A stretch of 62,621 nucleotides of DNA, the filler included, from Asterionella formosa (taxonomy: Eukaryota): the NCBI GenBank assembly GCA_002256025.1. It is 13 parts of 13 records of this genome, joined end to end, with 100 filler letters (N's around TTAATTAATTAA, not from the genome) between each part and the next. Parts side by side here need not be neighbours in the genome. Positions count along the whole stretch, not along the records: positions 1 to 22,987 come from NKIB01002555.1; 12 more parts are not named here. The stretch is one strand, 5' to 3'. Each line of letters opens with the position of its first letter. The stretch's first letter is position 1. Shown in pieces: positions 1-59,609 of this stretch. Below the pieces are notes generated by a model. That model worked only from the letters and a program-made list of their open reading frames with translations. It did not search any database and was not told the DNA's origin. The translations under genes were made by a program, and so were the position numbers.

Positions 1-10
1 TTTATAAACG

Positions 11-431
11 TGTTTAAGTATTACCTTTTGTATAGATCTATATCGTTAGACAAAGAAGACTATAGATAGAGACGTTCGTTTCTCTTTCCGTTTCTATATT
101 CTTATTGTGAGTTTACTAATCTAGTTTAGGTTGTTCTGTTTGAACAAAACAAACGAACTATTCTCCAAATGCTGTTTGCATTTCTAGGAACATACAATCA
201 TAGATAGACCCATGTCTATCTCACACTTACTGATCATAGGTATTTAACCATGATCATTCATTTCAAACTATCGGTCTTCCGAAATAGCTTATATTGTCCG
301 GCTCATTATAGTCGGAGTAACAAAGTATAATGTGTGGTTGATGAGAGCTTGGTACATCAAAGTTGACTCATTCGAATCGTTTGACTCGTTTGACTCCGAG
401 TCCTAACTACGTAGATGAGCTCACTTTAACA
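11..431 (-). mobile_element. Copia LTR, 421 bp, same family as the 3' LTR at 52972-53392
   Basis: Near-identical reverse complement of 52972-53392, which follows a Copia RNase H ORF and PPT. Termini TGTTAAAG...CTTAAACA on minus. Flanks AAACG and GCATG are not a TSD and there is no PPT upstream, so probably a 5' LTR whose internal part runs off the contig. Confidence 0.9.
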
Positions 432-4645: not shown

Positions 4646-5712
4646 CATTTCAACCCAAGATTAGAGGTAGGGTTAAAAAAATAATATTGAGTCAGAGTAC
4701 TCAAAGATCGCTAAACGGAGCTTTCACCAATATGCACCCTTTCCATATGCTCAGATACAGTCTCCTGACAAAGTAGGGGGTGTACCGGTAGGTCAACGCT
4801 ATATATCTGTCATCAGGAAATAGGATCTGTCGAGAGAGTGCAGAAAGGAACTTCGGCTTTTTTAATTATACTAAAAATAGTTGATTTTACAGGGCCATTT
4901 CGTTTATTTGGGTTAGTTTTAAAAAACCGAAGTTCCTTTATGCACTTTCTTGCCGAAAGTTAACTTCTGGGGCTGTATGAAGATTACACATGTACTTAAC
5001 TCTTCCTTAAACCCTGCCAACGTTGAGCTATCGTCGTTCAAAAATTCGACAATATTGGCCTTTTCAATGGTCTCCAAAATGTCAGAATCAGAATCAGAAT
5101 CAATAATCGCCAAAACGTCATCATCGGAACTGAAGTCTTGTGATTCAATTTTTCGTCTTTCAATCTTCTGTACAAAAAGTTTCATTGTCAGTGTCCGCTT
5201 CACTATAAATATTTTGATTGGTCAACTTCAATTACTTACCGATATTTGATTGGCCCGGTTTGCAAGGTCTTGCAAACCCACACCGGCTACACTGGATACA
5301 CATTTGAATTTTCTTGTGTGATCGCCAGTACGCCAGTACGCCAGTACCATATCCACTATGGGTGCCGGTAGATGATTATCATTTGACACACCACGCATAC
5401 CACTCCTAGAAAGCACTTCAAATATCTGCCGAGCCACTGGGTCATATGACACATTGAAAAACATCGATCAGTGTATAGAGTGTGGTATACCAGCAGTATA
5501 TACATACAGATGTACAATCTATATCTATGTATTTAGCGAATTCGAAAAGGAATCTATGCACGTACGCGCAAATTTCCACTGATTTGAATATTTCAAATGG
5601 AATCTTGTTATTCAAAAAAAAAACATAAAAATTCTTAGTTCCAGGGAATTTCGGCAACCCTAGTAAGCAATATTTTAATTTTTCCCTTAGGGTTGAAATG
5701 CAGGACCCTTAA
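4646..5712. mobile_element. Non-autonomous TIR DNA transposon (Kolobok-like), copy 1, left TIR clipped
   Basis: Left end CATTTCAACCCAAGATTAGAGGTAGGGTTAAAA, right end TAGGGTTGAAATGCAGGACCC followed by TTAA. Both subterminal regions recur at 34453-34640, 39700-39851, 45780-45898 and 53515-53585. Confidence 0.75.
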
Positions 5713-12647: not shown

Positions 12648-13219
12648 ATTGACCATCGGCTAGTGTTTGGCCTACCTGGACCTCGTGAGTGATCCTACTG
12701 AGGAAAGGAAGTAATGAGGTGGTGCATGAACTGTAATCTGATCGCATAGGAAAGTCTTACAACTTGAATAATCTAAATGTTCTGTATAATGAATTGTAAA
12801 GCCATTTTAGGCCCTTTTTCAAATGAGGTCTAGTGAACTTGAACAGTGTCATCACCAGCGGCAATTAGGGCGGGGAACTTTCCGGCCTTAGTAAGACCGG
12901 GTGCGAGCAAGCGAGGATTCTGCTTGATCATGTCATCGGAAGCAAGAAAAAAATCGTACTTTTGGCAAGCTTCTTGACAATCGATTGAAAAGACTACTGG
13001 CAGTTAGTTTACTGTTTACTAAATTGAAATGAGGGCATGAACGAATTTTTCTTGAACGCCTATAGCCTCGCTTTCTAATAAGAATCACCGATTTCAATGC
13101 AAACCATTGTAAATGTTGTCGCATAAGCTTAGGCTTGGACATGTCTGCGGAGTAGAAGCACGAAAGGCTTGCGAGGTCATCAAAACCACAACTAATAACA
13201 ATTCCATTTCCTTGTTACC

Positions 13220-13496
13220 TGTTGGAGAAATTATTAAAGGAAAGAAAAATCCCGGCATGAAACCTATTACACATTGAGTCGAATGAATCAAAAACGAATA
13301 CGGTAACAGAGAAAACTCATAATTCGAAAACAATCTAAATCGCCAGTAAAAGCCATAATTCTACTAAAACTCTTACGAATGATTACAATCCATTACTGCA
13401 ACCCATCGTTGTTCATATCTATAGCATATTTGGTCCCTGACGTGTCCTTACAGGATAGAAGAAAGCAATAGAGGGCTTTGGGACGCAATTTCAACA
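13220..13496 (+). mobile_element. 5' LTR (277 bp) of a degenerate Copia element
   Basis: TGTTGG...TTTCAACA termini. Homologous over its length to the reverse complement of the 3' LTR at 56998-57263. Confidence 0.85.
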
Positions 13497-16400
13497 GTTT
13501 TAATAGAATTAGCTGGCCAGGAAGAGCCGTGATATCACAATCAACAACAGGTGGACCATGGAGAGTCCAGAGACAAGATTTGAGGGTGCCAGACCATCCA
13601 GAGTCTGAATAAGTCACACAAGGCGCATAATGGGCTGAGTGGCAAAGGAAAGTTTACCAAGAGGGCTCAGGCCAAGGGCAAGTTTCAAACCAAGGGAGGA
13701 TGCAATAGTGCTTCTCACACCATCAAGAAGTCAGTTATTGACTATAACTACTACCTTGGATCAGCAAAGCATGCATCTGATTATGAGACTACTACTGAGT
13801 ACCTCATCAGCTACATCATGAAAGCTTTCGACTATGTCAATGACATAGGGACCGCGCTCAAGTTATTAGAACCAATTAACAGATCAGCATGGAAGCCAAG
13901 AATGCAAGTGAGCATTGCAACAACAGATGAAGATTGCACTGCAGAGAATCGGCAATATGAGATTGAGTTTAAAGCTGATTATGAATCCTACAGTAAATGA
14001 GTACAGGCCTACAAAAATAATAACACCAAGGCATATGCGTTGCTCTGGGAAAGATGCAACAAAGCCATGAAGAACAAGATCAAAGCGAGATCCGAAGTTG
14101 AAACAGACGAGTCAAATGAATCTTGCTTGTGTCTCCAAATTAGTCCAGTCATGACCTTTTTGGGTCTAGTCATGAACATGAATCAATCTTTACTCATAAA
14201 TGAATCAATCTTTTAGTCTTGTCGTGAACATGAGTCGATTTACTCATATATGACTTAGTTTTGTTTGTTTGGTTTGCTAAAAGTTAATTTTATAAGCTCA
14301 CTTTCTTTGGAAATACAAATAGAGTCAGATCTATCCTATAACATACTCCTAGATTCACCGTGATCCTTCGATCCACTGCCTAGCACCTGCGTTGCTGAGT
14401 ATATATATCGAGATATGTATACTATTCTTCAATAAGTCAAACCCCTTTCAGGTTAATCTATGACTTCTCTTTCAAGTTCCGATTACAAAAGGATCAACAA
14501 CAACCCAATGGCATTGCTTATGGCAATTAAAGAGAACACACATTAAATTTTCGAGAGAGTCGATATTCAATCATTTTAGATGCAATGAGAACGCTTTTAA
14601 AAACAAAGCAAAAAGAAGGAGAAAGTCTACAAGACTACACCAAGAGATTTCGTGTTGCACCAGATGCGCTCAAGTCACACATTGGAGGACCCATTATCCT
14701 CACCAAGTTCATTGAAGCCATGGATGGGTACAACAAGACAGACATCAAGCTGCGAGATAAATTCGCAAACAAGCTTCAGTCAATTTATGGCCTATTTATA
14801 CCTCGATAACGCAGATAAAGCAAAAATGGATCAATTATGACCGCGCTGAACATTCAACAGTCACTTGGCAACGATCAATACCCGAATAGTATTACCAAAT
14901 CAAATAATGTTCTCAGTAACCATAGGTTCAATGTAACAAATAAACCCAACAACCACAAGAAACCAGGAGATCATAATAAAGACAGGGACGAACAAAAGGA
15001 TGCAGGGAATGAAGATGAAGATGTGAACTTATCATTCACATAGTTAGAAGGAAAATGTTACTGCTGTGGAAGAGCTGGACATAAATCACCATCATGTCGC
15101 GATAATGATAAACCCAAAGAGGAATGGGCAATCAACAAGGCCCAACAAAGCCATGAACAGGCACAGGCTACTACTATATCAGACACAAGTACGGTTACCT
15201 CTGTTCTTACTTCCAACAACCCACCGTCATCACAAGCTTCAAAACTAGCAAATGTCAATCAATTTGGATGGGCGGGAGCTCATATCAAACTAAAATTTTA
15301 CCAATCATCTGTGATGCCTGACTGGATACTATTGGATAGTCAATCAAGTGTCACAGTCTTTTGCAATCCAATAATAGTTGAAATCATTCAAATGTCAACC
15401 AATGGAAGTATACACCTGGCCACAAATGGTGGATCCAGGGTCACTATTATGAGGGCTGATCTTCCACAATGGGGAGCAGTATGGTCTAATGATAAGGCAA
15501 TCACCAACATCTTCAGTTATGCCGAAATGGCAGATAGCTATAGGATTACCTACAACTCTGAGAAAGAAGGTGCATTTATTGTTCATTTGCCTGACAAACA
15601 AGTTCGATTGGAATGAATTGGGATGAATCTTTATGTTTTCAAGCCTCCTACAACTATTAAGGCTGAGAATGCTCTAATGTTTAATACAGTTGAAGAAAAC
15701 AAAAAATTCTACACTGAACGTGAACTTGAGAGAGCCAAGCAAGCCTGTGATCTATTTCATGCCCTGGACACACCATCAATTAACGATTTCAAGGCAAGAA
15801 TTTGTATGAATACGATCAACAATAATCCAGTGACTACCGATGATATCAAGATTGCCAAGAAAATTTTCGGACCTGATGTCGGAACACTAAAAGGCAAGAC
15901 AACTTGTCGCAAGCCTCTGCCAGTTGTGAACCACTACATCGAGATTCCTAAAGAGCTTATCAAAGCTCAACGCGAAGTGATTCTTTGCATGGATGGAATG
16001 AAAGTGAATGGACAATCATTTCTCACAAAAATTTCTTGAAACATTATGTATAGGACAGCGCAATGGGCGGGTCAAGAATCAGACAGCAAATGTCTATCGA
16101 GATGTTTTGACTCAGGTATTCCGTGTTTTCAATACTGGAGGATTTAAAATTGCAACAATCCACTGTGACAACAAGTTTTGACCATTGATGGAACATCTTT
16201 CCAATGAATTTCAAGTCACTATGAACTATGCAAACCCACAAGAAGATGTTCCTGAAGCGGAGCGAAATAATCGAGTGATTAAAGAACGTGGGCGCGCAGC
16301 TTATCATCGATTACTTTTCAAACATTTGCCATGACCAATGATTAAGATTCTAGTCACAGAATCTGCAAAGAAATTGAATTTCTTTCCAGCAAAGAACGGG

Positions 16401-17340
16401 ATATCCTCGTATTACAGTCCTTGTATGATTTTACATCAACGAAACCTGGACTAAGCTCAACATTGCCAGTATACATATGGCACCTATGTCCAAGCACATG
16501 AAGAACCGGTGTTTTCAAACACTAATGCACCACGCAGCCTAGATTGTATTTATCTACGCTACAATTACAACGTGCAAGTAGGTCATGAAATATTACATCT
16601 ACCTACAAATTCATTGTTCACTAGATGAACAGTTACTCCTCTACCACTTACCCCGCCCAGCAATCATAAATCAAGTACACGCCCTTGCTCTGCAGGAAAA
16701 TTGCCAGATGGTCTCAAGATATCAAATCGAACGGGACAACTATTTTATAACAGTGCTTGGATTATGACAATGAAGCATTTGAAGATGCACAAGACGAAGA
16801 TTATGAAGATCAACAAGGGCAGCTTTTGACGATGAAAGCAGATAATGATGAATTTCTCGGAGAAGACTATGATGAAATGACTCCGGATGAAATATATGAA
16901 GCAGAACAGCTTGAATTAACCAAAAATTTCCAAGAGGATGACCCTGAACCTGAGGGCAACAATGAAAAAATGTTGAAATGATTGCAGATGAAATCCAAGA
17001 TGAGGATGAGGAACCAGTAAATGAAACTGAAAACAAAGAGGCAATGTTAGAAGTCAATCCAAGCACTCAGGATGACACAGAACCAAATGTTAGAACTACA
17101 AGGTCTGGAAGAGTCTCAAGACCACCATCAAAACAAACTATGGTCCAACATCATTTGCATACCCAAGCACACTGTCAAGAAGAATACACAACTGATAATG
17201 CGAAAGTGATTGCAATGACAATGTGTTTTATGAATGAGATGTGTATCGATAAAGAAGCATTTCAATTTGTTCAGTCATGCATCTTAAGAAAGGCCTCAAG
17301 AAACTTGGCAAGAAAGGAAGGGATGCTGCGTATAAAGAAA
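13497..17340 (+). mobile_element. Degenerate Ty1/Copia (CoDi-type) internal region: gag, zinc knuckle, protease, integrase, start of RT; 3'-truncated
   Basis: QKEGESLQDYTKRF, CYCCGRAGHKSPSC, WILLDSQS, integrase remnants (IHCD...PEAERNNRVIKE) and KKGLKKLGKKG. Many stops and frameshifts. Colinear with the intact frame at 58204-59609. Confidence 0.92.
14096..14477. mobile_element. 382-bp insertion (probable solo LTR) nested in the Copia gag, with 5-bp TSD TCCGA
   Basis: TCCGA at 14091-14095 and 14478-14482. The intact relative (minus strand, about 59490-59515) has a single TCCGA at this site. Termini AGTTGAAA...TTTCAAGT. Confidence 0.85.
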
Positions 17341-17968: not shown

Positions 17969-18040
17969 TCCGACATAGTATAGTGGCTAGTATCCCCGCC
18001 TGTCACGCGGGAGACCGGGGTTCGATTCCCCGTGTCGGAG
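17969..18040 (+). tRNA. trnD-GTC: tRNA-Asp (GTC)
   Basis: Acceptor TCCGACA/TGTCGGA plus G discriminator, anticodon arm CCCGC-CTGTCAC-GCGGG, T arm CGGGG-TTCGATT-CCCCG, no encoded CCA, TTTTT Pol III terminator at 18044-18048. Confidence 0.97.
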
Positions 18041-22987: not shown

Positions 22988-23087
22988 NNNNNNNNNNNNN
23001 NNNNNNNNNNNNNNNNNNNNNNNNNNNNNNNTTAATTAATTAANNNNNNNNNNNNNNNNNNNNNNNNNNNNNNNNNNNNNNNNNNNN
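22988..23087. other. Artificial contig linker N44-TTAATTAATTAA-N44 (also 46050-46149, 47558-47657, 49065-49164, 50572-50671, 52079-52178, 53586-53685, 55092-55191, 56598-56697, 58104-58203, 59610-59709, 61116-61215)
   Basis: Twelve identical 100-bp spacers with stop codons in all six frames. Flanking contigs are in descending length order. Confidence 0.99.
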
Positions 23088-23290
23088 GTTATTGAGTTCT
23101 GATATAAATGATAAAACCTTAATCCTATATACATTTGTATTGATGTACGGGATTGCTCACTCTCCCATACTGAGAGGGATACAACGAATATTAATTTGTT
23201 CCATAATATGCATAGTTCATTGAAAAGTGACTATGCCATTGGAATGTGCTTGAATGATAGGATAGTATGTTTTATAGCCTGTTCGTACTC
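23088..23290 (-). mobile_element. Degenerate Gypsy 3' end (integrase tail, PPT, LTR start)
   Basis: Homologous to 55510-55670, e.g. GATTGCTCACTCTCCCA and GAATATTAATT..TTC..TAATATGCATAGT..TTGAAAAGT. Confidence 0.7.
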
Positions 23291-24450: not shown

Positions 24451-24775
24451 TACGCAAGAACACGTTCTCGTAGTACAAACAAGGTGACATTGGTATCTAC
24501 AGGAAGGTCAGGTACCGCACGTTTTCTGCGCACCACCTTTACAGTTACAATTCACTCCCAATGATTTGTCCCATGCCTGCGGACGAGATAGGCTAGCTTT
24601 CGATGAAAATAATATTCCTTAAGTAATTTAGGATACGTTACTCTTATTGACTGATGAAGATTTGCAGAGTCAAATTCTGAACACGACACGGATTTGCTGC
24701 CTGATCAAACTGCTCAGCAAACCGTCCTCTTCTTGCTTCGAAATACAAATACGAAAGTTTTTTACGTTTAGCACT

Positions 24776-26620
24776 CGCTGACTACGAATGGAACTTGCTG
24801 ACTAGGACTAGAATTTGCTGATTACGACGAGAATTTGCTGACAAAGACAGAACATGAGGGCAGTAGATTTTCTCAATGACCCTTTTTCAAATGACGTACC
24901 AGGTACTGGTATGTACAATATTTCCCCTCATCATAGCCATGCTACAGTAGGACTATTATGAACATCCGTTACGTTACCGGCATGTCTACCGGTATATACC
25001 AGTACCAGTACTGGTAGTCACAGTCATTATCACGCCTGATGCAACAGCGTATGAATACAAGGTACCAGCATATTTGCAAATAATCATACATATCACATTT
25101 ACTATGGTTAATAAATACTAGGATATATGCTCAGGGTACCCGAGGAAGCCCTTGTAGACGATAGCATATAATTATTTAGCTTAGATGTTGCGATTTGTTT
25201 TTAAATATAAATCGCTAGAGTGTAGGAGTAGTTCTTGTGAGTGGCTGGAAGGTCCTGTAATCAGCGCACATAGCGTGCAGGTTGCTCGTTTTCTGTTCAT
25301 CGATTCACGTACGAGAAAAAGGAAGGGGTATACCCCAAAAATTGTCGAACCCCTAAATTTTGCGCAACTCCGATATAGACGTTAAGCCATTACTCGTTTT
25401 AATGTCAAAATGAACTTTAAGTCAGCAGTCAGCAATTTTTTCAATTTTTCAGCGAATCAAGTCAGCAGTCAGTAGTTAGCAAGTTAAAGTCAGCATTTTT
25501 ACGATAGTACCCGTACATGGTAGTAGCAATATCACGAAGTAGATAGCAATGAATTTTTTCAGGCATCAATGTCAATTACACAGTTTATTATCATGTACGG
25601 AGTACCAGGTACCAGATACCAGGTACCAGGTACGTCTATGTTACTCCCGATAGTATAGTACAAAAGTAGAAGGCATCGCTTTTAGTAGTATCCCAACAAC
25701 AAAAAGATAATGCGTTTCCATCGTTATTCTAATATGAAAAGTAGACACGATTTGTATACCGGTAACGGTAGTTGGTCTTTTCCTATGTTGAAGTTGGCAG
25801 TCAGCAAACGAAGTCAGCAGTCAGCGAATATTTCAAATTTTCAGCAAATCCAGTCAGCAGTTAGCAACAAGAAGTCCGCAGTCAGCAAGTTTAAGTTGGT
25901 AGTCAGCGATTCTGCGGTGAAAGGTGCCAGTGCTATTCCGTTTGAAAGTTTGCAACGGTTACAGGTAATCTAAATAAATTGAAATAAATTGAGATTTTCA
26001 TCATTTTGGAATTGGTGAGCCAGACAGACATCCAATGAAGTAGGTTGAAACCGCTACATGGAATTTTTAGTATATAGTGCGCGCAATTCGCTGATTACCG
26101 GATCTTCCTGGAGAATCTTGCATGATGCCGTCTCCGCCTTGAACATGACGAAATGACGAAAATAGCGGGGGAAATGAAACGACACTATGCTATTTGGTAA
26201 ATATATCTCATACAACATTGATAATACAATAGTAAAAAATAATTGTAGTAACACTAATATTGAGAACGGAAATTGAAGTTGCCGATCATGGCGCATTTCT
26301 TTACGTAGCTTAGGCGATGCACAATTTTAAAAAAAGAAGCTGTGACGGCCGAGATTTAACATTTTCACAGCATGCACCAACATACTACACTATGGAAATC
26401 GTTAGGGCGAACCAAATTTTGTTTGATTCTCTATTTAGCGATATCAATTTAAAGTCCATTGATATTTTCAAAATGACTCGTTTGTTTACGAGAACTGATC
26501 CAGCTGATGACTGCAATGACTAGAAATTTGCCGACAACGGCTAGAATTTGCTGACTATGAATAGAACTTGCTGACTACGAATAGAATTTGCTGACTTGGA
26601 ATAGAATATGCTGACAACAA
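24776..26620. repeat. Arrays of a GCTGAC/GTCAGC motif in opposing orientations (probable transposon subterminal repeats)
   Basis: About 20-bp-period TAGAA(T/C)TTGCTGAC units at 24776-24850 (about 4) and 26521-26620 (5). Inverted GTCAGC clusters at 25420-25495 and 25797-25910. Confidence 0.7.
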
Positions 26621-28484
26621 GGAATAAAAGTTACTGAGCTATTTGTGAACTCTATAACCAAACCGACTTCCAGTTCCTGAATACTATTACATGTCGAAGT
26701 AGTTGAACACGATTTCGATGATCAGAAGACGACTTGGATTTAGTGAATGATAATTTAACGGCATAGAAAGTTCCTTATAAGAGTTTGGAATGGAAAGCCA
26801 GCCTAACCCTTCCGGTAGGCATGGGTCAAATTATTGGGAGTGAATCGAAACTGAAAAAGTGGGCATAAAACGTGCACTAGTACCGGACCATCCAGTTGAT
26901 ACAGGGTACGTCATCTATACTACATATACTAGGTGATAAATAAATATTTGGCCATTAGGAAATGAAATTGCCTTTTAATTATTAGCAAAATACTAAAGTG
27001 ATATCTTACTACTTTTACTAAGTTTTTGATAACAGTTATTACTCCCATTCAACATCTTCGTCGTCAACCATGATCTGATAGTTACCGCAATGTCGTAAAT
27101 TATCGTTCTCAGTAGGCACAATATCTTGAGGAACATTATCTCCACCAAATGTTTTCAGTTGCTCTTCTGAGATTGAAGGGAATGAAAAATATGTGTTTGG
27201 AGAGCTGCTTGCAGTATTTTAAGTTACTAATCCACTAGGGTTCCTTCCAGCCACAGATCGATTATTTTGTGCGATTTCAACACACAATTGCTGATAATAT
27301 TTCAAAAAAGTCATCAGTCCATTGATCGATTAGACCTTTTGAAACTGAACTTTCCTATCTAACATTGTTCTTGGAAAGTGCTTTTCTACCGATATCGACA
27401 ACATCCTGCCAATACTGAGGTAGTTGTGCCTGTGATAGATGACAGGAAGGATTTTAATTAATCCACTATCATTGCGATAGTTACTTTTTTTTTAATACAA
27501 GGAAACAATGCTTCTGTCGAAGAATTAATAACTGAACCGACAAACCGTGATTATAATTCACATTTGGCTCGATCACTTAGAATGAATTTAGTTTCCCAAA
27601 CGTTTTCTCATATAAGATATGGATAGCCACGACGGACCCTGCCTATAAAATGAACTCGAGCTAGAACATCAATCTAGTGGTGATAGCCATTGCTTGCCCT
27701 TTCAATGAAACTTGTTTGAGCAAATGCGTACAATTTTCATTCCCAATCATCAATCTTCGAGGGACCAAGCTTGTTGAAGTAATCTTCTGTAACACCAACT
27801 AAGACGGGAAAATTGTTAGAAAATTGAATGGGAAGAAAATAAATGTTTTAACTGCAGAAAAAAAAATTGACTTACTTAAAATCGATTTAAACAGATTGTT
27901 GAATTTTGCCGTTCTCACATTTTATTAATGCACATACCTCCAAATGTAGAGTTGATATATTCTAAAATTGCTTTGTTTGGCTGTTCGTTCCAATCTATAA
28001 CTATCCAGAAGTTATGCATCACCTTCATTCCATATTAATTTGAAAGTTTAGGATCGCTTTCTGCTTCTTTGCCTACTCCCGGTTATTTCAACTCAATGCC
28101 ACCAGAGGTGTGGTACTAGACTACTATGCTCTATTGTCGATGGATGATATTGACTAAATCAAAAAATACAGGGTTGAGAACAATGTTTTTGTCAGGTAGT
28201 TACAAGGTTCTATTCAAACGGAGCACTAGGATATTGGTAGTGCATTGCTTACATACAAGGGTAGCAAGCCTGGTCCCTGCCTGGTACCAGGGTATCGGCG
28301 ATGCTCAAGGAGAAAACGATTCTCAACTTCTTTCAAAAGGGTATCATAATGATATATTAGATTAATTAAGAAAAATTATGTCTCAATAATAATTGATACC
28401 GCTAACTATTTCCGTCTTTCTAAAGTAGTATTTGATAAATATCTGTCCAATTAATCAGAAACCGAAAGTTTTACCGGGCTGGAG

Positions 28485-30819: not shown

Positions 30820-33000
30820 AGGGCCTTTCCTATCATTCTGTCATTGGTCTCATTGGTGTATCATCTCCGCAATATGACACAAAAATGGCAGTTTGGTTTT
30901 TGGTATCACAAACGGGTCTTTTTGGTCTGATCACTGGTGTGTCATGGGTGTATCACTGATACAGATTTTGGACCCCAGACCAATGCTGTATCAGTGATAC
31001 AGCCATTGATTGCTGTGTATCATGTTACCAGTGCCAACTAAACATATTTATAAGTATTGGAATGAAACACACCACCCTGCAGAACTCGTAAATTTTTGCA
31101 TGTATGATAGTTTTTGGATCAAAAATATGATCAATGAATCATATAATTATGATCATGCAGTAAACTTTAACCAAGCTTGAAGTATGATGATACTATCATA
31201 GTTATTACACCATTGCATCATATAATTGGTTAAACATGGTCCTATGATGTGTATTCTTTTGTCATGCATCTATCTTAGCATGATTGTAATTCTCGTCGAT
31301 ATCACCATCTAAAATAGGATGAAATGGATCAAATTTAGAACTATCTTTAAGAATGGTTCTATGCTTCTATATCTTGAGTGGCTAGAGAATGTTCTACAAT
31401 GCTCTCATCGCAATGATTGGTGCTTCAGCTTTCACTTCCACCTTCCCCCTATCCAATTCTGAAGGTTGTTGTGCTGGTTGCCTTGCCGTTGTTCCCCAGC
31501 TTTGTTCCATTTACTCCTGACGGATCTGAGTTTGCATTCACGCATTTTCCCATTACTTTTTACTCTGTCTCTTTGTTCTAATCAGCCATACAAACAAAGA
31601 GAAGCAATTCATTATTAGCTGTTCATGTTTTGCTTACACAACAACATGCATTTCGCTTCTATCTGCCTTCACTTGCCACAAATTGAGGAAGTAACTGATG
31701 CATATTTTTGTAAAAGGATGTGTCAGTTGAAGATTGAATAAGAAAGTATCGATCAATAAATGGGTTCCAATGCTGCTGTTGTTTGTAACTTACAAAAACT
31801 GTTTGTCTACCATTATCCTGAAAGAAGCAACACATATGTGTCAGTTATTCTAACAGTTGTGGGTTGATCCAAAGATGGCTGATAGCACTTACCGATTTCT
31901 TTTTTCCACATTGATGGTTGGCCAGCCACCAAATCGAAAAGGAGCTGTGATTGAATCACTGAAAGGGGACGAGTCATTCCGTATTTGTAATCCCAACAAT
32001 TGATCATCCTGGCATTTGCTCTTGACAAACCGTGATGCTATGCACAGCTAGTTGATTCCGCCCTTCTCCATCATATTCACTCCTTCTTAGCCGCATGGTG
32101 TATTATTGTGTTGTATTGTCACTTCAGTTTTTCGCATCATGTCTTGCTTGAGATCCTTCATTTCAGGAAGTGGAAACAGCATGACAAGGAACATGAAATG
32201 CATTTGCTCTTGACTTACCATCAATTGATTCCGCCCTTCTCTTCTAAGCCGCAATTATCATTGTGCTGTATTATCACTTTCGTTTTCCGCGTCATCATGT
32301 GTGATGATCCTTCATTTCAGGAGCAAAGTGTATGCATGACAAAGAACATGAAAACATGATTTCAAATGTTTCAGCCATGAATACATTTATATAAAGATGT
32401 GTAAGTTTAAATGTATATATAGTTGAACATTTGCATAGTTTTAATCACGCTCATTATACGGCACATCCTGTGTATACTAATATCAATTTTGATTACTATA
32501 CATCATTCAAATATATACAATGCATGATGAGTTCATAGTTTTCCACGACCTGTTGAATTTTTTCAATTTTTTTATGTCAATTCTTGTACCTACAAGTCAG
32601 TGGCTGATTTAATTAAGCCCCTTAATAGCAGGAGTCATCACCAACGTCTAAATCATACATTTATGTGTTTAGACACATTGACCATATACATTCGAAAAAT
32701 TCATAGCAGGCAGTACTGTATATTTACTGGGTATTGCTTCTATCATGGGAGTACCACAATAGTGCAGTGGAAAACTGAAATTTTTCATGTGTTTAGGATC
32801 ATTTGATCATATTTCTAAGATCAACTGATCCTGATTCTTGAAAATTAATTTTGATCTTTCATTTTCTCATCAATGACACTGTTTATCATATGATCAATAT
32901 GTTATGATCAAAGGTACTATAGGATGAACGAATCAAAATTTATGATTGATTAAAGATCATAGTTTATACCGGAGTAGTTGCTCATGCATGCAACCCCTTC
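30820..33000. repeat. ATCA/TGAT-rich dispersed repeat; 31100-31795 is homologous to 54403-55091
   Basis: About 690 bp align closely by eye with contig 8. Dense TGATCA/TATCAT motifs. Internal duplication TTGATTCCGCCCTTCTC...TCCTTCATTTCAGGA at about 32050-32170 and 32225-32322. Outer boundaries uncertain. Confidence 0.65.
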
Positions 33001-34974
33001 CCCTTCTCCCTGTATACAGTACGGAAGTGATAACCTCCAAGCTACCAAATTTTTTGTCTTGTAAGAATTATTGCAGCATGCATGCATACATGACTCCTAC
33101 TGGTATATACAGTACCAGACTACCAATCCTATAGGTCTTGTAGAAGTATCGCAACATGGCTGCATATCTAATGAAAGGGAGGAGGCGGGAGTAGTCATCT
33201 ATGCACCTGTATATGAAATATGGAAATGATTAAATATAGTCTACAAAAGTAGCAGTGCATCATATATGCCCTGTTATTTTAATTTCTATTCTGTGCTTTT
33301 TCGCCACAATTGTTTTCATTGTTTCACTGGACGCCATTCGAAATGATTGTGCTTCGAACGAAGCAATGATCAAAGTCCACCCCATTCCAGATTTGTGAGT
33401 CTCAAAACACCTATGTATCAGCCAGGCGATTTAAATGGGACTTTTTTTGTGCATCCTTGTTGTGTTTTTACATTGACTTGGCAACTTTCAGCCAAGAGCA
33501 GCCATGGCATGCCATCATTTATTGTCTGTACGAATTTTCGAATGCATTCAGCTTTGATAACTTTTGCTCCCCTCCTAAATACTATCTCACCAACCTTGTC
33601 ATAGATTTTTCTTTATCATTTGGCTGCACAGGCCCAGGTTACTCAATGCCTTCATCTGCAAGTTCAGCCAAGCACGTTGGCGTCAAGAAAACCTCAACCC
33701 CGATGTTTAGCTATGATTGAGGTTGTAACACTGATCGATGCTCCAGTGACAGACTGGCCGGGAATATTCGTCTTGTGTGATGAGGCATTTCGTTTTCATT
33801 GGATTTCTTTTCAAGCTCTTAACGGATTGCATACGAACATACTGTGCACTGTAGATGATGATTCATCGAAGACATACTATGATGACTTGAACGACAAATG
33901 AAACTCTCGTTCCTCTCGACATGTCTGCTTTGTCATTGTTGCAAGAATCAGAGTGAGGACAGGAGAGGATGATGAGCCAAACCACATTTTTACTTTAACT
34001 GTTTCATTATCCTACCAAAAATTTAAATAAAGGAACCTAAAAGAAACAATACAAATAATAATTAAATTTCCATAGTCAAAAGGGTTACTATTTAAATTAC
34101 GAGGGCATTTATCAAAATTATTAGATGATATAAAGAAAAAATGTGATCAGATGATCATTATCCTATGATGCATCATAGGAATATGATGGTATTTATTTGC
34201 AGACGTACTTCTAGAAAGTATACAAACAAACATATAACATGCACCATTCGATTTGGAATAAATTTTTAATATGAGGCTGTTAGCTGGAGAATTATCGGAG
34301 CTTGCACTTCATGTGAGGCAGTTTCCTATGAGAAGTTTGGTGGCAACTACTGGTATTGTTGTTTGGTGATCATGGTGAAGCAACAATATTTATTTGCACT
34401 GCATAGTAATACTGTAGTAATACTAAGTATATACTGTAGTGTCAAAATGCCGTTAAGGTTCCTGCATTTCAAGCCTAAGGCAAAAATTAAAATATTGCTT
34501 AGGGTTGCCAAAACTCCCTGGAACCAAGAATTTATATGAGCTATTTTTGAATGACATGATTCCATTTGAAATATTTAAATCAGTGGAAATTTGCGCATAC
34601 ATACATACATACATAGATTCCTTTCCAAACTCGCTAAATTTATTTATAGACATTCTCCATTGCTAAATGTAGCTATATATGCCAACAATTATGTTTCTTA
34701 TATAGCTGACCTATACTTATGGTACCTGGTACCGGTACCATTTACCAGGTACTTTGATCAATGACTCTATCTAAGTACTAAGGGTTGTTCTTATAATTCC
34801 GAATTTGCTGTATCATTTCTGGGTTGTGGGCAAAAAGTGATGGTTGGTATCAAAACACGGTATCAGCAATGGTAACTTGATGGCCTTTTTTGCCCCCTCC
34901 GAAAACGGTATCAGTGATACTGACGTTTTCACGCAGGTATCATTTCCGTTGTCATTAATAAAATAACAATGCCC

Positions 34975-37900
34975 CGTAAGCGCATATAAGGGAGATTTTG
35001 TTGGGGAGTTATCAATTCCCAAGGAACCATTACGCCTGGGAGGGATTGCTTCAGGCCTTGCTGTAGAAGGCATAGGCACTGTCCACTGGACTTTTCTATC
35101 TGACGATGGACGTTTGTTGCACCTGCATCTGAATGCATACTATGTTCCTCAGTGTACACAGAGTCTTCTATCACCCCAACAAATATTCTCGAAAGAACAA
35201 GGTTTTACCGGTCAGTTTGTCATACTGGATGACTATGCCCAGCTACTGATAGATGGTAAACCACCATTAACTATTTACTATGACCCAGTCAATGACTTGC
35301 CAACAAGTCGAGCAATTCGTTCTGCTACTGCAGGCCAACGAGAGGAGTTCCTATATCTATGCATCACCGAAGACCGCAATCAGAATTTAACAGAAGCACA
35401 GAAGGAGTATCTGCGTTGGCACTACAAACTGGGACATTTGGGCTCTGCTAGTACAATACAGTGGTTATTACGACAACCGTCATTTGGTAACAATCTCAAG
35501 AGTCGAAAAGGCTGCCCGTTGCACTGCACCTAAGTGTGCAGCATGTGAGTACGGTAAGGCCCATAGAAAACCTTTAAAAGCCGCAATCAGCATTCCTTCG
35601 CCTGAGAGGGAGGGAAATGTAAATTCTGGTGATCTATATCCAGGCTCAGGAGTGTCTGTGGACCATTTTGAATCCCGTGTCCTCGGACGACAATATTCTT
35701 CGCGAGGAAAATCACAAGATTCTTGCATGTATAAAGGGGGCTGTATTTTGGTGGATCACGCATCAGGCCTTCTTTATGTCCACCATTAGGTGGGATTTCC
35801 GGCAACCGAAACACTCACTGGAAAGCAGCAATTCGAGAATTGGGCTTACAATCACGGTGTTCTTGTTGCATTCTATATGACTGATAACGGAACATTCGGC
35901 ACTAAGGAGTTTGTTGACGCAATTATTGCACGAGGACAACAAGTTAAATACTGTGGAGTTGGTGCACACCACCAGAACGGTGTTGCTGAAAGAAGCATAC
36001 GCACTGTATCCAATATGGCACGAGTCATGATGCTACATGCATCTATAAGATGGCCTGAAACTGCTGATGCGCGCGACCCTATGGCCTATGGCAGTTGATT
36101 ATGCTGCGCATGTCTATAACCATGTCCCAGGCATACGAACAGGTCATTCACCAATGGATATATTTACTGGGTCTCTAGTACTACCCAAGCATGGTCTTAA
36201 GGATTTACATGTGTGGGGCTGTCCATCCTAGTATGTATTAGATCCAAAGATGCAAAATGGCATGAAACTGCCCAGATGGGAACCAAGATCTCGGTGTGCT
36301 CTGTTTGTGGGAATGTCCCCTAATCACAGTACCAACGTGCCCCTGGTACTAAACTTGAAGACTGGAAGTATATCACCTCAATTTCATGTGGTGTTCGATG
36401 ACTTCTTTTCTACAGTGATGTCCATTCCAGCCAGAGGGAGATGACCCCGCAGCACACTGGGAGAATATTTTCAACGAATCACGCTTTCAGGCGTATTTTG
36501 ATGAACATGATTTGCCTACCTTACAGGAGGAATGGACCGAAAACAATGATGCCTACCTAGACAAGAAACGTCATATGGAGGCTAAGGTGTTACCCACCAT
36601 GGGTCTACACAGAGATGAGACGCCGTCTTATCTTCAGAGGCAGGGAGTTACCAATGCAGGTGACTATGACACAAGAAAGAGGGACACCATTGTCTCCTGG
36701 TGTTGCTGTACTTTCGCCCATTGAAATACAGAGTGTACCAGCACGGATTTATGCAGTGGATGCTAACAAGTGGCTGCATAGGCTACCACCCACTAGATTG
36801 GTACAAGAATCGGTAGTGACCATTCCACCAGGAACAGTAGTGTCATGGGAACCACAAGAGAACATTCCGCAAGGAACAGGAGTGGAGCAAGAACACTTGG
36901 AGATGCTGTCCCAAATGTCTCCTCGCCCACCACAGAGGCGTAGCATCAGAACAAACAGAGTACCGCAACGCTTTACTCCTGGTCTACGTGGGCAAGACGG
37001 TTATCTTGCAGGGTCATTTCTATCTAGTCCAAGTGAGCAGTATCATAGTAGCCTGAGCCAATCAGAATCAGTCCTCGCCTATTTGTCATCTTTAATGACC
37101 GACCCAATAACTGGATATTTGGAATGTACTAACCCACTTGCTTTCGCTGCGATGACTAAACGATCCGACCCAGACTCGCCAAGATATCACGAAGCAATGG
37201 CAAGCATTGATTCTGAATTATTTAAGGAAGCGATGGTAGCAGAAATAAATGCTCTTACGGCAAAGAATACATGGACTGTAATACCACGGGCATCCATTTC
37301 TGGCAAAAATTTTCTACCAGGAGCATGGGCATTTAAGAGGAAGAGATTTCCTGACGGTCGTCTTCGAAAGTGTAAAGCACGGTTTTGTGTCCATGGTGAT
37401 AAGCAAGTCGAAGGCGTTGACTACTTCAAAATGTATGCACCAGTGATACAATGGTCTACAGTGAGATGCTTACTCATAATGTCGATTGTGTTGGACCTAA
37501 AGACACAATAAATCGACTATAGTAATGCATTCTGTCAAGCAGAAATTGAAGAAGAAGTCTACGTGGAGTTACCTAAAGACTTTGGTGACAAGCAAGGGCG
37601 CGATATGGTTCTTAAACTAAATAAGTCGCTCTATGGTACAAAACAGGCTCCACGGGCTTAGTTCTTGAAACTTAAAGAAAGTCTGGAAGATCGCGGTTTC
37701 CACCAATCTAAATTGGATCCATGTTTCTTTATTCACCCAGATAGTATGGTGTACCTAAACTATGTAGATGATGGGATACTAATTGAAAAAAATTGTTTCC
37801 AAGATTGAATCCATGATTGATGATCTCAGTACAACACTTGAGCTAACAAGAGAAGGAGACCTTTCGGCTTTCTTAGGAATACAAATTGATAAGATCATTG

Positions 37901-38767
37901 AGAATGGTTCTTTAAGGCTGACACAGGAAGGCTTAATCAAGCGAGTGTTAGAAGCTACTAAAATGCAAGAATGCAGACCCACAATGACACCAGCTGTCAA
38001 GGATACATTGGGTGCAGATGTTGATGGAAAACCAGCAGCAGCAGAAGAACAATGGAACTATAGGTCCGTGGTGGGAATGCTATTATACTTGGCATCAAAC
38101 TCGCGACCAGACATAGCCTTTGCAGTACATCAGTGTGCTCGTTTCTCCCATTGTCCTATGGTATCACATGAAGGGGCAATTAAGAGTATCTACCGCTATC
38201 TGAAAGGAACTATGAAAGAAGGAATTGTTTTCACACCTTCTGAGGAACTTGCAATAGATTGCTATGTAGATTCTGACTTTGCGGGTTTGTATGGTACTGA
38301 GGATTCTCATGATCCAATTTGCGCTAAGTACAGGACAGGATATGTCATAACGTTAGCAGGATGTCCGCTACTATGGGTATCAAAGCTAGCTACAGACCAC
38401 TATAGCCCTATCTACTACGGAAGCAGAATACCAGGCTTTATCAGCAAGTTGTTGGGACCTAATCCCATTACGACATATTTGCAAGGAAGCCTCGGATGCC
38501 CTGAAGATAAATGGACCTTTCATAGTACGATCACACTCGAAGATATATGAAGATAATAGTGCATGTTTGTCTCAAGCAACAATGCCCAAAATGACGCCAC
38601 GTACAAAACATATAGCAGTGGCTTATCATTGGTTTCGAGAATATGTATCGTCGGGAGACATTGAAGTCTTGAAAATTGATACTACAAAGCAACTTGCGGA
38701 CATTTTCACAAAGGGCTTGGTAGCAGAAAGATTTACAGCAATACGCAAGCTGCTGTGTGGTTGGTAA
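34975..38767 (+). mobile_element. Degenerate Ty1/Copia pol (protease C-part, GAG-pre-integrase, integrase, RT, RNase H); 5'-truncated
   Basis: YYVP...LLSPQ, WHYKLGH, VSVDHF, TDNG, HHQNGVAERSIR, WAFKRKRFPDG..KARF, LNKSLYG, YVDD, YRSVVGMLLYL, YVDSDFAG, RTKHI, QLADIFTKGL. Order PR-IN-RT-RH. Confidence 0.95.
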
Positions 38768-39389: not shown

Positions 39390-40023
39390 GAATATTAAAA
39401 TCGTAAATTGTACTCCGTACTCATACTACTCACCGAGTTGATTTCTAACTCCATATACATAATTCGCGTAGATTTCTTGCATGGTTTGAGGACTGGTTTG
39501 GTACCATTATGTACAGGTAGTCTGGAAGGAAAAGCACATGTTTGTAGCCAGCCCGTAACCGTTGAATTTTCGTGATACTTTTTGATGATACAATTTTATT
39601 CTTATTTTTGTGGAGAATGGATTTTTTCGGTTTAAATCGAGTAGCCGTTGCATGATACTTTTTCAAAAAATATGATACCAAATCGAAGATGATAAGAACG
39701 ACCCTAAGCATTGGAAAGGGTGCATATTGGTGAAAGCTCCGTTTAGCGATATACATTTATGTTTTACTCGTAAGAAGTGTGTGTTTGACTACTCTGACTT
39801 AATATTTTTTAACCCTACCATTAATCTAGGGTTGAAATGCAGGAACCTTAAATAATAACTTTGTGCCCATCAGCTTTACGTGCCATCAAGTTAGGCAGCT
39901 TTTTCGTTCTGTAACTATAGCAAGCAAAGCTATACATAGTCAATCGCCATCTGCTGCTGCTCTTGCTGAGCCTCGAGTCCGATTCAAGGGTGTCGTCAGC
40001 TTGCCGTGAACTCCGGACTGGTG

Positions 40024-45779: not shown

Positions 45780-45898
45780 TTTCTCCGTTTAGCGATGTAC
45801 ATTTATTCTTTACCCGTACGACGTGTGTGTTTGACTACTCTGACTTGATATTGCTATTTTAACCCTACCTCTAATCTAGGGTTGAAACGCAGGAACCT
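45780..45898. mobile_element. Kolobok-like TIR element end, copy 3
   Basis: CTCCGTTTAGCGAT...TTAACCCTACCTCTAATCTAGGGTTGAAACGCAGGAACCT matches 39737-39848. Confidence 0.75.
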
Positions 45899-46149
45899 TC
45901 TATGTAAGAGATCCGATGAATATACAGAACTTAACCGAGCTCGATAGAAATCCTAAACATATAATAATAACTCTGCCTTCCGAGGGATTTCTAGTTAGTA
46001 CAGCACCCGGAAGTATGGATAGATGGATCTGTTCGAAATCATCCACATGNNNNNNNNNNNNNNNNNNNNNNNNNNNNNNNNNNNNNNNNNNNNTTAATTA
46101 ATTAANNNNNNNNNNNNNNNNNNNNNNNNNNNNNNNNNNNNNNNNNNNN

Positions 46150-52078: not shown

Positions 52079-52178
52079 NNNNNNNNNNNNNNNNNNNNNN
52101 NNNNNNNNNNNNNNNNNNNNNNTTAATTAATTAANNNNNNNNNNNNNNNNNNNNNNNNNNNNNNNNNNNNNNNNNNNN

Positions 52179-52996
52179 ATGACTACACGACTATATTTGG
52201 AAAGGAACCAAAGAAAGCCTCAACGCCGGGATTCCCGGGAACGGTCCTAAGTAAGAACCGAGGAGAGACGATCAAGAATATGGAATATCGCTCCCTCGTT
52301 GGAAAGATACTTTACTTCGTGAAGAAAATATCGCCAGTATGCGCCAACGCATGTCGTGAATTGTCACAGCACCTCGACAACCCAGGCGAAACGCACTGGC
52401 AAGCATTGGAACGCCTACTCGGGTATTTGTGTCTACATGGGGACATTGCATGCAGAATGAAACTGCGTGCGCCCAACGAGCTACGTATTCAAGATGTCGT
52501 GGATAGCGCCTTCGCCTCTAATCCTGATACACGAAAAAGTGTCAGCGGTTATTTAGGCACGATCGGAGGGTGCGCCCTAATTCACTGGATATCAAAAGGA
52601 CAGGATATCGTAACGCAATCAAGCACCGAGTGTGAATATGTCGCACTCAGTAACGGCTCAAAGGAAACTGTCTTCGCAACGAATCTACTGGGCGAAATTA
52701 CCACAATCGCGATGCCTAGTCTAATGGGTGAGGACAATACCGGTGCGATTTATTTAACGAAAAATCATCAGGTCGGGGCACGTACAAAACACATCGACGT
52801 TAGATACCACTATGTACGAGAACAAGTCGAAAACGGAACGATTAAGGTTGACTACGTCAATACGGAAAAGAATCCAGCAGATGTTCTAACTAAAAATGTC
52901 ACGGACAAGATTATGAACATGCACGGATATGCGATCCAAAACGGGATGATGGATTGTTGGAACAAGGAGAGTGTTAAAGTGAGCTCATCTACGTAG
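52179..52996 (+). mobile_element. Copia RT C-terminus and RNase H (intact frame, stop inside the LTR)
   Basis: YRSLVGKILY, VDSAFAS, RKSVSGY, SSTECEYVAL, EDNTGAI, RTKHIDVRYHYVRE, NPADVLTK. PPT GGAACAAGGAGAG at 52959-52971. Confidence 0.95.
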
Positions 52997-53392: not shown

Positions 53393-53514
53393 CATATATA
53401 CCGGTATTATCTGTAAGTATGAACTCTTATATTGTGGCTGTTACCTGGTACCTGGTACCTGGTACCTGGTAGTACGTTTACCATACACCGTATACTTCAT
53501 TGTCCTGGACCCCC

Positions 53515-57263: not shown

Positions 57264-57285
57264 CACTCCTGCTGGACACGGATGC

Positions 57286-58103
57286 TCACTTTGAATTCAT
57301 AATTTCCTGACGAAAATGAATAAATTTCATTCCAACCAGTGGTTTCGTCATGTAGTCTGCTAACATTGCATCCGATGGACAGTACTTGATTTGTACTTCC
57401 TTTCTTTCAATAAGATCAGTAATATAAAAATATTTGATGTTGAAATGTCGCGTGCGTTTTCCTGAACTTGCTTTTCCATTCGCTTCTAGCTTCATTGCGC
57501 TAGTGTTGTCACGGTAAATGACATTCGTAGTCACCTTGTGTCCTTGTGCTTCAATAAATAATTTCGTCCACAACACCTTTGATATGATGTCATCGACACC
57601 AACCAACTCAGCTTCAGTCGAGCTTCTAGTGTTCACTTTCTGTTTCGTGGACATAGAACAAATAATTCCGTTTCCAAGTGACATTGTAGCTCCTGTGTGA
57701 CTTTTAAAATCTTTGTGCACTGCAAACGCCGCATCAACGTACCATTTAATGCTCTGAGTGTCATCAGCACTCATAGATGCAACCTCGTTCTGAGTTGCTT
57801 TCAAGAAATTCATGATCTTGACTAATTTTACCCAATCACCTTCATTCGGTTCGATAGTTCGGGTTGCCAGAAATGCAATTCCTGGTTGAATGTCCTGTCT
57901 TCCTCGCTTACATAGGAACATTCCTTTCATAACAAAAGTATGAAATATTTTTGCTTTTTCATATTCAAGCTTCTTTGATTTTGTATCAACTGTGAACAGT
58001 TTATCTGTCCATGGGAATTTTCCAACACCTTCAAGTTTCACTGGAAAATCATCAATCATTGATTTCACATATTTGGTCATGTCCACCCTCAACACTCCTG
58101 GAA
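57286..58103 (-). mobile_element. Copia RT C-terminus and RNase H (intact frame)
   Basis: KRGRQDIQ, WYVDAAFAVH, SHTGA, SSTEAELV, RDNTSAM, RTRHFNIKYFYITD, ADYMTKPL. Confidence 0.95.
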
Positions 58104-58203
58104 NNNNNNNNNNNNNNNNNNNNNNNNNNNNNNNNNNNNNNNNNNNNTTAATTAATTAANNNNNNNNNNNNNNNNNNNNNNNNNNNNNNNNNNNNNNNNN
58201 NNN

Positions 58204-59609
58204 CATTAATTGATGGTGTACCCAAGGCATGAAATAGATCACGAGCTCGCTTAGCTCTCTGAAATTGACGTTCAGTGTAAAATGTTTTGTTTTCTTCAAG
58301 TGTATTTAACATTTGAGCATTCTCCGCTCTAATTCTTGTAGTTGGCTTGAAAACATATAAGTTCATCCCAATTCTTTCAAATCGAACTGTTTTGTCAGGC
58401 AAATGAACAATGAATGCATCTTCTTTCTCAGAGTCATAGGTAATTCTGTACCTATCTGCCATTTCGGCATAACTGAAGATGTTTGTGATTGCCTTTTCAT
58501 TAAACCATACTTCTCCCCATTCTGGAAGATCAGCCTTCATATTAGTTACCATGGATCCACCATTTGTGGCCAGGTGCATTCTTCCATTGGTTGACATTCG
58601 AATGTTATTAACCATTTTTGGATTGCAAAAGACTGTGACACTTGATTGATTATCCAATAGTATCCAGTCAGGCATCTCAGATGCTTGGTAAAATTGTAGT
58701 TTCATATGAGCTCCCGTCCATCCAAATTGATTGGCATTTGCTTGCTGTGAAGCTTGTGATGACGGCGGGTTGTTGGAATTAACAGAGGTAACTGTACTCG
58801 TGTCGGATGTATTATTAGCCTGTGCCTGTGCATGGCTTTGAGCCTTGTTGATAGCCCATTCCTCTTTGGGTTTATTCTTGTCTTGGCACGAAGGGGATTT
58901 GTGACCTGCTTTTCCGCAGCAGTAACATTTTCCTTCTAACTGTGCAAACGATAAGTTCACGTCTTCGTCTTCCCTGCCTGCATCCTTCTGTTTCCTCTCT
59001 TTATCATTATCTCCTGTTTTCTTGTAGACAGATTTATTTGTTACGTCAAACCGATGGTTGCTGAGAACATTATTTGATTCGGTGATGGTCTTTGGGTATT
59101 GATCGTTGCCGAGTGATTGTTGAGTGTTCAGCCCGGTCATAATTGAACCGTATTTAGCTTTATCGGCATTATCGAGATATAAATATGCCATAAATTGACT
59201 GAAAGCTTGTTCGCGAAATTTATCTCGTTGTTTGATGTCATTCTCATTGTATCCATCCATGGCTTCAACGAACTTGGTGAGGATAATGGGTCCTCCCATG
59301 TGTGACTTGAGCACATCTCGTGCCACACGAAATCTCTTGGTGTAGTCTTGTAGACTTTCTCCTTCCTTTTGCTTCGTGAACAAAAGCGTTCTCATCGCAT
59401 CTAAAATGATCGACATTGAATATCGATTCTCTTGAAAATTTAATGCGTGTTCTTTAATTGCCATAAGCAATGTTATTGGGTTATTTTCGATCCTATTGTA
59501 ATCGGATCTCGCTTCAATCTTGTTCTTCATGGCTTTGTTGCATCTTTCCCAGAGCAACGCATATGCCTTGGTATTATTATTTTCGTAGGCCTGTACCCTT
59601 TTACTGTAG
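58204..59609 (-). mobile_element. Copia gag-protease region, intact relative of 13497-17340
   Basis: Open across the whole contig. CYCCGKAGHKSPSC knuckle and WILLDNQS protease motif. Confidence 0.95.

Follow-up and report, generated by a model that had tools for sequence, protein, structure and literature searches.

A putative primer binding site complementary to its own long terminal repeat in a Copia-type retrotransposon family of the diatom Asterionella formosa

A stretch of 62,621 nucleotides (nt) from the diatom Asterionella formosa (GenBank assembly GCA_002256025.1), in which 13 parts were joined with filler letters and which is referred to here as the window, contains two copies of one long terminal repeat (LTR) retrotransposon family, copy A on the plus strand and copy B on the minus strand. 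Judging from its sequence, this family most likely starts minus-strand DNA synthesis by self-priming of the type known from Tf1. [quoted passage not shown] The features involved are as follows.

13220..13496, plus strand: 5' LTR of copy A, 277 nt, TGTTGG...TTTCAACA, 83% identical to the LTR of copy B, with flanks diverging at both ends
13356..13371, plus strand: putative self-primer TAATTCTACTAAAACT, the sense LTR segment pairing with 13496-13511, with a C-A mismatch (13364/13503) in copy A
13372..13495, plus strand: rest of the presumed R-U5 (repeat and unique 5' region), which would be looped out by the primer-PBS helix, with predicted internal helices shared by both families described below
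13497..13511, plus strand: putative primer binding site GTTTTAATAGAATTA, abutting the LTR end, with the same 15-mer behind the LTR in metagenome loci L001, L003, L004, and L006
56998..57263, minus strand: 3' LTR of copy B, whose segment 57134-57119 reads TAATTCTATTAAAACT, the perfect complement of the family PBS

In the proposed mechanism, the 16-nt sense segment (13356-13371), which is taken to be situated at the RNA 5' end or close to it, would fold back across about 125 nt of R-U5 and pair with the last LTR base and the next 15 nt (13496-13511). Cleavage at the 3' edge of this duplex, presumably by the RNase H of the element, would leave a 3'-OH that the reverse transcriptase (RT) could extend into U5. 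Because the LTR border marks the start of minus-strand synthesis, the 3' end of any primer must anneal just behind it. The original prediction of priming without a tRNA stood as regards the site, which has its complement in the element's own LTR rather than in the 3' end of a tRNA; the priming step itself, like the cleavage of the segment and its placement at the RNA 5' end, is what we infer from it.

Pairing of the post-LTR site with the LTR

The limits of the LTR were set where the alignment of copies A and B stops, and the same borders were found in the metagenome loci L002, L003, and L005 despite unrelated flanks. In copy A, the 15 nt behind the 5' LTR lack an initial TGG and are the reverse complement of LTR positions 13356-13370 (TAATTCTACTAAAAC) at 14 of 15 positions, as originally reported, the sole mismatch being C13364 opposite A13503. 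The second LTR copy likewise reached the predicted 15 of 15: positions 57120-57134 match the PBS on the plus strand, and the minus-strand LTR is its perfect complement. When U13371-A13496 is included, where A13496 is the last base of the LTR, the helix comprises 16 bp. A published definition of self-primers calls for at least 10 nt, situated 0-5 nt behind the 5' LTR and complementary to it (accessible text of PMC6317226); the pairing observed here spans 15 nt (16 with the last LTR base) at an offset of 0 nt, within that range. The CATAAT near which transcription had been predicted to start is found at 13354-13359.

The match was evaluated against several backgrounds. A complement of at least 14 of 15 was obtained in 6 of 20,000 shuffles of the 277-nt LTR, and none of the 60,616 other 15-mers in the window reached 14 (the top value of 13 occurred 12 times). 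Matches of the PBS type with at most two mismatches numbered four in the window, compared with 0.28 expected. Additionally, the primer-PBS helix is included in both the minimum-energy and the centroid folds of 13354-13530. No further 5' LTR-PBS junction was found in the window. The LTR at 431-3, which belongs to another family, leaves the window about 10 nt past its end, and no complement of at least 7 nt was found there.

Further copies were identified by scanning public metagenome contigs with a 23-nt conserved LTR word, which returned six family loci in four assemblies, all with LTRs of the B type. The 15-mer GTTTTAATAGAATTA stands directly behind the LTR end in four of the six (L001, L003, L004, and L006), and L003 is a genuine 5' LTR with host flank on its left, while L002 and L005 are LTRs followed by unrelated sequence. 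Complementarity was complete in every young copy in which it could be assessed: L001, L003, and L004 each pair at 15 of 15 positions (TAATTCTATTAAAAC). The loci L001 and L004 show the order pol end, polypurine tract, single LTR, PBS, and 5' leader; their single LTR could be an assembly collapse of two LTRs, a sign of tandem elements with a common LTR, or a trace of one-LTR circles.

Public sequencing runs also contain the family. The run that best matched the stretch is labelled as an algae metagenome (0.81 of words), and the stretch was partly present in freshwater and lake runs, five of which are recorded as RNA. Four runs were aligned to positions 13100-14100, namely X1 and X2 (DNA) and X15 and X16 (RNA); all consist of contigs, without pile-ups of beginnings or ends. 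The summed contig depth in X1 is about 900 in the flank and climbs to 10^5-10^6 within the element, 100 to 1000 times the single-copy flank, so the family is very abundant in its host, the summed depth not being a copy number. Pieces of the family are present in the RNA libraries as well. At position 13364, all contigs of the RNA runs (two each) carry T, and RNA contigs across the PBS have listed differences at 13514, 13535, 13550, and 13552 and none inside 13497-13511. Because of this combination, the lake population appears to pair at 15 of 15 positions.

Three signals in these runs were considered and set aside. The depth drop upstream of 13404, a candidate transcription start, is seen in the DNA runs too and coincides with private indels of copy A that clip the contigs. 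Two RNA contigs starting at 13470, also considered as a start, come from one study and begin at a repeat border. The loose-end consensus before 13404 in X1, which might have indicated a short LTR without the segment, consists of 30 letters with an agreement of 0.78, and clipped ordinary sequence fits it equally. Separately, families with otherwise dissimilar LTRs have in common a conserved stretch, the last 80-90 nt of the LTR (13406-13496; 190-264 in L007), surrounding CTGACG and the terminal TTTCAACA, and the LTR end region 13406-13496 has by far the top depth in the RNA runs (10^4, compared with 10^2 in gag).

Sites of the tRNA type were sought behind the LTR end. No TGG was present in the first 30 nt behind the LTR in L003 or in the related loci L007, L010, and L016 described below. 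The TGG of copy A at 13514 (TGGCCAGG..., at +17) was rejected as a tRNA-type PBS because the T occurs in copy A alone, the family base at this position being C (97% of the X1 depth), and the family sequence behind the 15-mer is GCCGGCC. The sole tRNA in the window, a tRNA-Asp (GTC) at 17969-18040 on the plus strand, matches the PBS at 6 of 15 positions and is not complementary to it; against the post-LTR sequence of L007 it scored 7 of 16, with the query offset by one base. This tRNA gene sits about 650 nt past the truncated end of copy A.

Compensatory changes in a related family and competing explanations

Prokaryote genome assemblies were scanned with alignment A2, which contains 31 full-length relatives, and six loci were found. 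These loci (L007-L012) occur in five metagenome-assembled genomes (MAGs) labelled Chlamydiaceae, Alphaproteobacteria, Puniceicoccaceae, Lewinellaceae, and Spirosomataceae, and look like diatom-like contigs binned into bacterial MAGs, that is, eukaryote contamination. The locus L007, with a protein identity of 71% to the family of copies A and B (family 1), was the only one of the six with both an LTR and post-LTR sequence. Its LTR is 361 nt long, its 5' copy being cut by the contig start (1-264), and likewise ends in ...TTTCAACA. The post-LTR sequence of L007 (GTATTTCGAGATTAAT) is unlike that of family 1. The L007 LTR nevertheless contains ATTAATCTCGAAATACT at 129-145, which pairs perfectly with 264-280 over 17 bp including the last LTR base; the corresponding 16-mer lies at 129-144, and none of 20,000 shuffles of the L007 LTR reached 16 of 16. 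The segment lies 119 nt ahead of the LTR end in L007 and 125 nt ahead of it in family 1. Between the two families, the sequence at the helix site differs at 7 of 17 positions, each family tracking its own LTR. Since the post-LTR bases differ between families and yet match their own LTR, a shared host tRNA does not fit.

The original prediction had named covariation between the PBS and the LTR segment as a test, and its outcome was positive, with 6 of 17 pairs compensatory. The alignment included copy A, L001, L003, L004, and L007 (five sequences, four of them distinct) across a 17-pair helix. Six pairs had changed on both sides and none on one side only, ten were invariant, and one was paired in L007 only; 94% of the helix cells were paired. 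When the 3' side was slid by one to three columns, 0-1 double-changed pairs and 24-49% paired cells were obtained, and two of 500 shuffles matched the observed covariation values. RNAalifold, applied to alignment A3, recovered 16 of the 17 helix pairs unprompted. With the loop helices included, 13 of 42 predicted pairs were kept through double changes, in a comparison of two lineages only. The fold of L007 had a z of -3.7.

More distant loci added further post-LTR sequences. In L010 and L016, the LTR end is followed by yet other sequences, and the relevant part of the LTR is absent from these loci; a search for the missing LTRs in their genomes returned only the loci themselves or matches at chance level. 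The locus L011 has an LTR but no PBS, and no second copy was present in its genome. A search with the 9-nt LTR-end motif was too unspecific, and an LTR-wide alignment of three families gave no clean border between the unique 3' region (U3) and R.

These comparisons bear on four other explanations. That the match arose by chance in AT-rich sequence is extremely improbable; base composition and the 6 of 20,000 LTR shuffles that reach 14 of 15 speak for it, while the pairing recurs with another sequence at the same place in L007 (0 of 20,000 shuffles) and is perfect in three of three testable young copies.

It is also very improbable that a host tRNA, a tRNA fragment, or another small RNA is the primer and that the LTR match is incidental or a form of mimicry. 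Such a primer would suit the similarity between family 1 and the distant L016 behind the LTR, and tRNA-Met, half tRNA-Met, or half tRNA-Ile serve as primers for Copia-type elements elsewhere (accessible text of PMC6317226). Against a host RNA stand the lack of an initial TGG in the PBS, the perfect match of L007 to its own LTR despite differing at 7 of 17 positions, and the 6 of 15 score of the single tRNA in the window. In base composition, the PBS contains 2 G or C among its 15 nt, which is unlike nuclear tRNAs.

A rather unlikely alternative is that the helix is only structural, a stem closing R-U5 that serves packaging, dimerisation, or presentation of the initiation site, with another RNA priming nearby. 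Long-range 5' structures near the PBS are known in Ty1 and in retroviruses, more conserved helices are predicted inside the loop, and covariation demonstrates selection for pairing rather than for priming. The helix, however, fills the 15-16 nt that abut the LTR end, where the 3' end of a primer must sit; no TGG or other conserved candidate site lies within 30 nt in four of four related post-LTR sequences; and the sequence is family-specific, so that no common host primer suits both families.

Finally, the segment might belong to U3, upstream of the transcription start, in which case the pairing would circularise the genomic RNA (3' U3 with 5' PBS) or priming would proceed from the 3' copy or in trans. 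In its support, a canonical TATA box is absent from the region about 30 nt upstream of the segment, and the genomic RNAs of Ty1 and Ty3 are known to pair end to end. This arrangement is nonetheless quite unlikely, given that the segment is preceded by or begins with YCA in three LTRs (family 1, L007, and L011), that it lies at a similar distance from the LTR end in both families (125 and 119 nt), and that the intervening stretch folds into shared helices, as would one R-U5 unit. In detail, CA stands directly ahead of the segment in family 1 and L011, and in L007 the A is the first paired base. The motif YCA fits an initiator-type transcription start, and the CA at the segment is thus weakly suggestive of such a start.

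Self-priming, the reading preferred here, also has several observations to contend with. In X1, C accounts for 96% of the depth at position 13364 and T for 4% (31 contigs), and the 40 differences listed out of 204 do not include 13503. Many source copies may therefore carry the C-A mismatch, which would be odd if the primer were copied into the PBS in each cycle. In favour of self-priming, one X1 contig shows G instead of A13503 in the PBS, a base able to pair with C13364. The whole fold of copy A is not more stable than shuffles (z = -0.39). The covariation is a single contrast between two lineages, and its shuffle control, on four distinct rows, has little power. Given the likeness between the post-LTR sequences of L016 (42% identity) and family 1, a host primer common to both could also be envisaged. 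The four runs, which consist of contigs, showed no transcription start, cleavage product, or strong-stop DNA.

Copies, element class, and other features of the window

The best match to the family was the protein P0003, which has 1624 amino acids, lies on a contig of 5374 nt, and is 99% identical to the RNase H part of copy B. It came from a search with that part, in which 804 longer proteins were found at E <= 1e-5 among 1926 candidates. The remaining features of the two copies are described relative to it.

13629..17316, plus strand: coding region of copy A for gag, protease, and a putative integrase, degraded and frameshifted, ending before RT, corresponding to P0003 residues 1-1097
57289..59608, minus strand: body of copy B, with the gag-protease part joined to the RNase H part and without the putative integrase and RT
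57264..57276, minus strand: polypurine-rich tract CAGCAGGAGTGTG of putative function, read from the sequence immediately upstream of the 3' LTR

Copy A aligned with P0003 in pieces of 59-79% identity between 13635 and 17316, with frame breaks and nothing further on (tblastn within the window); an additional weak, overlapping piece of 35% identity was found at 14472-14900. Compared with the run contigs, copy A also has a private 5-nt insertion behind the ATG. In copy B, the gag-protease part (59608-58205) corresponds to P0003 residues 119-585 and the RNase H part (58101-57289) to residues 1354-1624, at identities of 98.7% and 98.5%, respectively (tblastn). The family member at 57 kb had originally been described as intact, a description that does not hold, as tblastn found copy B to be without the part for the putative integrase and RT and without its 5' end. 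Blocks of N (44 N, 12 bases, 44 N) occur in the window once at 22988-23087 and, between 46050 and 61215, at intervals of about 1507 nt. Two of them fall within copy B: the block at 58104-58203 cuts it, and that at 59610-59709 hides its 5' limit, the 5' end being lost in or beside this masked stretch. Copy B is an internally deleted, non-autonomous form for which RT would be needed in trans, and it is taken to be young, being about 98.6% identical to an intact relative of 1624 amino acids. The same polypurine motif precedes the LTR in L001, L004, L005, L007, and L011.

The original prediction of a Copia-type diatom element was upheld through relatives rather than through the window itself: the window copies are without RT, so the Copia class was assigned through P0003, which is 98.5-98.7% identical to the retained parts of copy B and carries RVT_2 at residues 1142-1372 (Pfam, 44.4 bits; cut-off 31.6). 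Named relatives are from the diatoms Fragilaria crotonensis (74% and 66%), Nitzschia inconspicua, and Attheya. A Pfam search of the window open reading frames (ORFs) of the family gave nothing over threshold, only sub-threshold gag and zinc-knuckle matches. In P0003, a protease is followed by a region of about 500 amino acids, RVT_2, and a final RNase H. The rve domain was not found in P0003 by Pfam, nor did a profile search of solved structures (PDB) give a match. Within alignment A2, invariant D655 and D712, together with nearby E residues, look like a D,D35E triad. The Gypsy-type RT and the PR-RT-RH-INT order (protease, RT, RNase H, integrase) are absent from P0003. In a language-model atlas, the gag-protease part was placed near diatom clusters with CCHC knuckles and next to Copia gag/protease families, which is regarded as a lead only; no relatives were found among viral contigs, either by single protein or by alignment. 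On these protein features, the family is classed as Ty1/copia (Pseudoviridae) of a freshwater diatom, with an intact autonomous relative elsewhere, and is placed outside the Tf1/sushi group (Ty3/gypsy chromoviruses), with the likeness to Tf1 lying in the presumed mode of working only.

The window includes a variety of other repeats. A coding-like stretch of about 1.35 kb on the plus strand is present in three copies that are 90-95% identical (50695-52058, 59780-61104, and 61216-62621); two of these lie in tandem at the window end and adjoin the truncated 5' side of copy B. Another Copia-like family is represented by LTRs at 3-431 (minus strand) and 52972-53400 (plus strand), which are 98% identical, in opposite orientation, and 52 kb apart; the latter comes after an RNase H-like ORF (52127-52993), and the former runs off the window start. 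A third Copia-type fragment at 34967-38764 (plus strand) has Pol_BBD, RVT_2 in two pieces, and an RNase H-like end; no pair of LTRs accompanies it in the window. The ORF at 55575-56645 (minus strand) encodes a Gypsy-type Integrase_H2C2 (E = 2e-10) and adjoins the end of the 3' LTR of copy B; related pieces lie at 31092-31795 and 23089-23259. Additionally, a short repeat resembling a miniature inverted-repeat transposable element (about 60-140 nt, with an internal palindrome) occurs in four copies in both orientations (4646-4754, 39704-39849, 45783-45899, and 53515-53585), and a 20-nt tandem unit (...GAATTTGCTGAC...) forms arrays at 24744-24864 and 26517-26637, 1.7 kb apart.

Significance and comparison with known systems

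The priming mode is a basic trait of LTR elements, as it sets the host factors that are needed and the ways in which a host can block the element. The mechanism is already known, and it has been predicted within Copia; what is new is the finding of its signature, together with compensatory changes, in Copia elements of diatoms. Self-priming has so far been proven only for Gypsy elements of the Tf1 type and predicted for one plant Copia lineage, and the diatom signature adds to these a major group of algae, along with a second part of the Copia tree, distant from the first. There is also a consequence for annotation. In Cyclotella cryptica, only LTR elements with a recognised PBS were kept (accessible text of PMC7466962), and diatom annotations that demand such a site may discard self-priming elements.

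A precedent had been suspected in the CoDi elements of Phaeodactylum. This suspicion was not confirmed: the accessible main text of Maumus 2009 (PMC2806351) makes no mention of primer binding, tRNA, or priming, and PBS there denotes a buffer. No paper proposing self-priming for diatom Copia elements was found in the open-access literature, most subscription journals lying outside this coverage.

Self-priming might even be the general, ancestral mode of a whole clade of diatom Copia elements rather than a quirk of one family, although this broader view is tentative and somewhat doubtful. If it were true, the primer would be rewritten into the PBS in every cycle, so that the pair would drift freely, and the clade would be independent of host tRNAs and invisible to silencing based on tRNA fragments. 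Pipelines that require a tRNA-type PBS would systematically drop the clade. Self-priming would then have arisen or persisted in the deep Copia branch with Ty, GalEa, and CoDi, which would support hairpin priming before tRNA priming.

Among known systems, the closest in arrangement are Tf1 and Tf2 of Schizosaccharomyces pombe and Tj1 of S. japonicus, in which, as here, a sense segment of the element's own LTR, and not a tRNA, provides the complement of the PBS by the 5' LTR. According to a review, the PBS of Tf1 is paired with the first 11 bases, the RNase H cut falling between bases 11 and 12 (accessible text of PMC7175516), while self-priming of Tj1 was proposed from sequence (accessible text of PMC4600332). 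These elements are fungal chromoviruses of the Gypsy type, whereas the diatom family is of the Copia type (RVT_2), and the duplex has 16-17 bp in the diatom families compared with 11 in Tf1. For Tf1, experiments have shown that the segment lies at the RNA 5' end and that it is cleaved, whereas the diatom family is known from sequence alone.

The original prediction had treated self-priming as characterised in Gypsy-type Tf1, which is correct for Tf1, but the mode is not confined there. Neumann 2019 (PMC6317226, accessible text) predicted self-priming for 12% of plant elements, including the Copia TAR lineage, and cited an earlier proposal for Houba and Osr-1. The TAR lineage, to which these two belong, resembles the diatom family in being of the Copia type, with self-priming predicted from sequence by the same criterion (PMC6317226). 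These are land-plant elements, however, and the likeness described here is one of priming signature.

Other Copia-type elements share the lack of a match to a tRNA 3' end. The PBS of copia, Osser, Bryco, and Bianca is, according to the accessible text of PMC6317226, complementary to an internal part of tRNA-Met or tRNA-Ile (half-tRNA primers), whereas the PBS of the diatom family corresponds to its own LTR and changes with it. Similarly, the fungal GalEa elements are of the Copia type, share a deep branch with the diatom CoDi groups, and carry a conserved hairpin site in place of a classical PBS (accessible text of PMC5445492). In GalEa, Donnart 2017 found no complement in the LTR, so that priming of the Tf1 type was unsupported (PMC5445492, accessible text); in contrast, the diatom family has such a complement.

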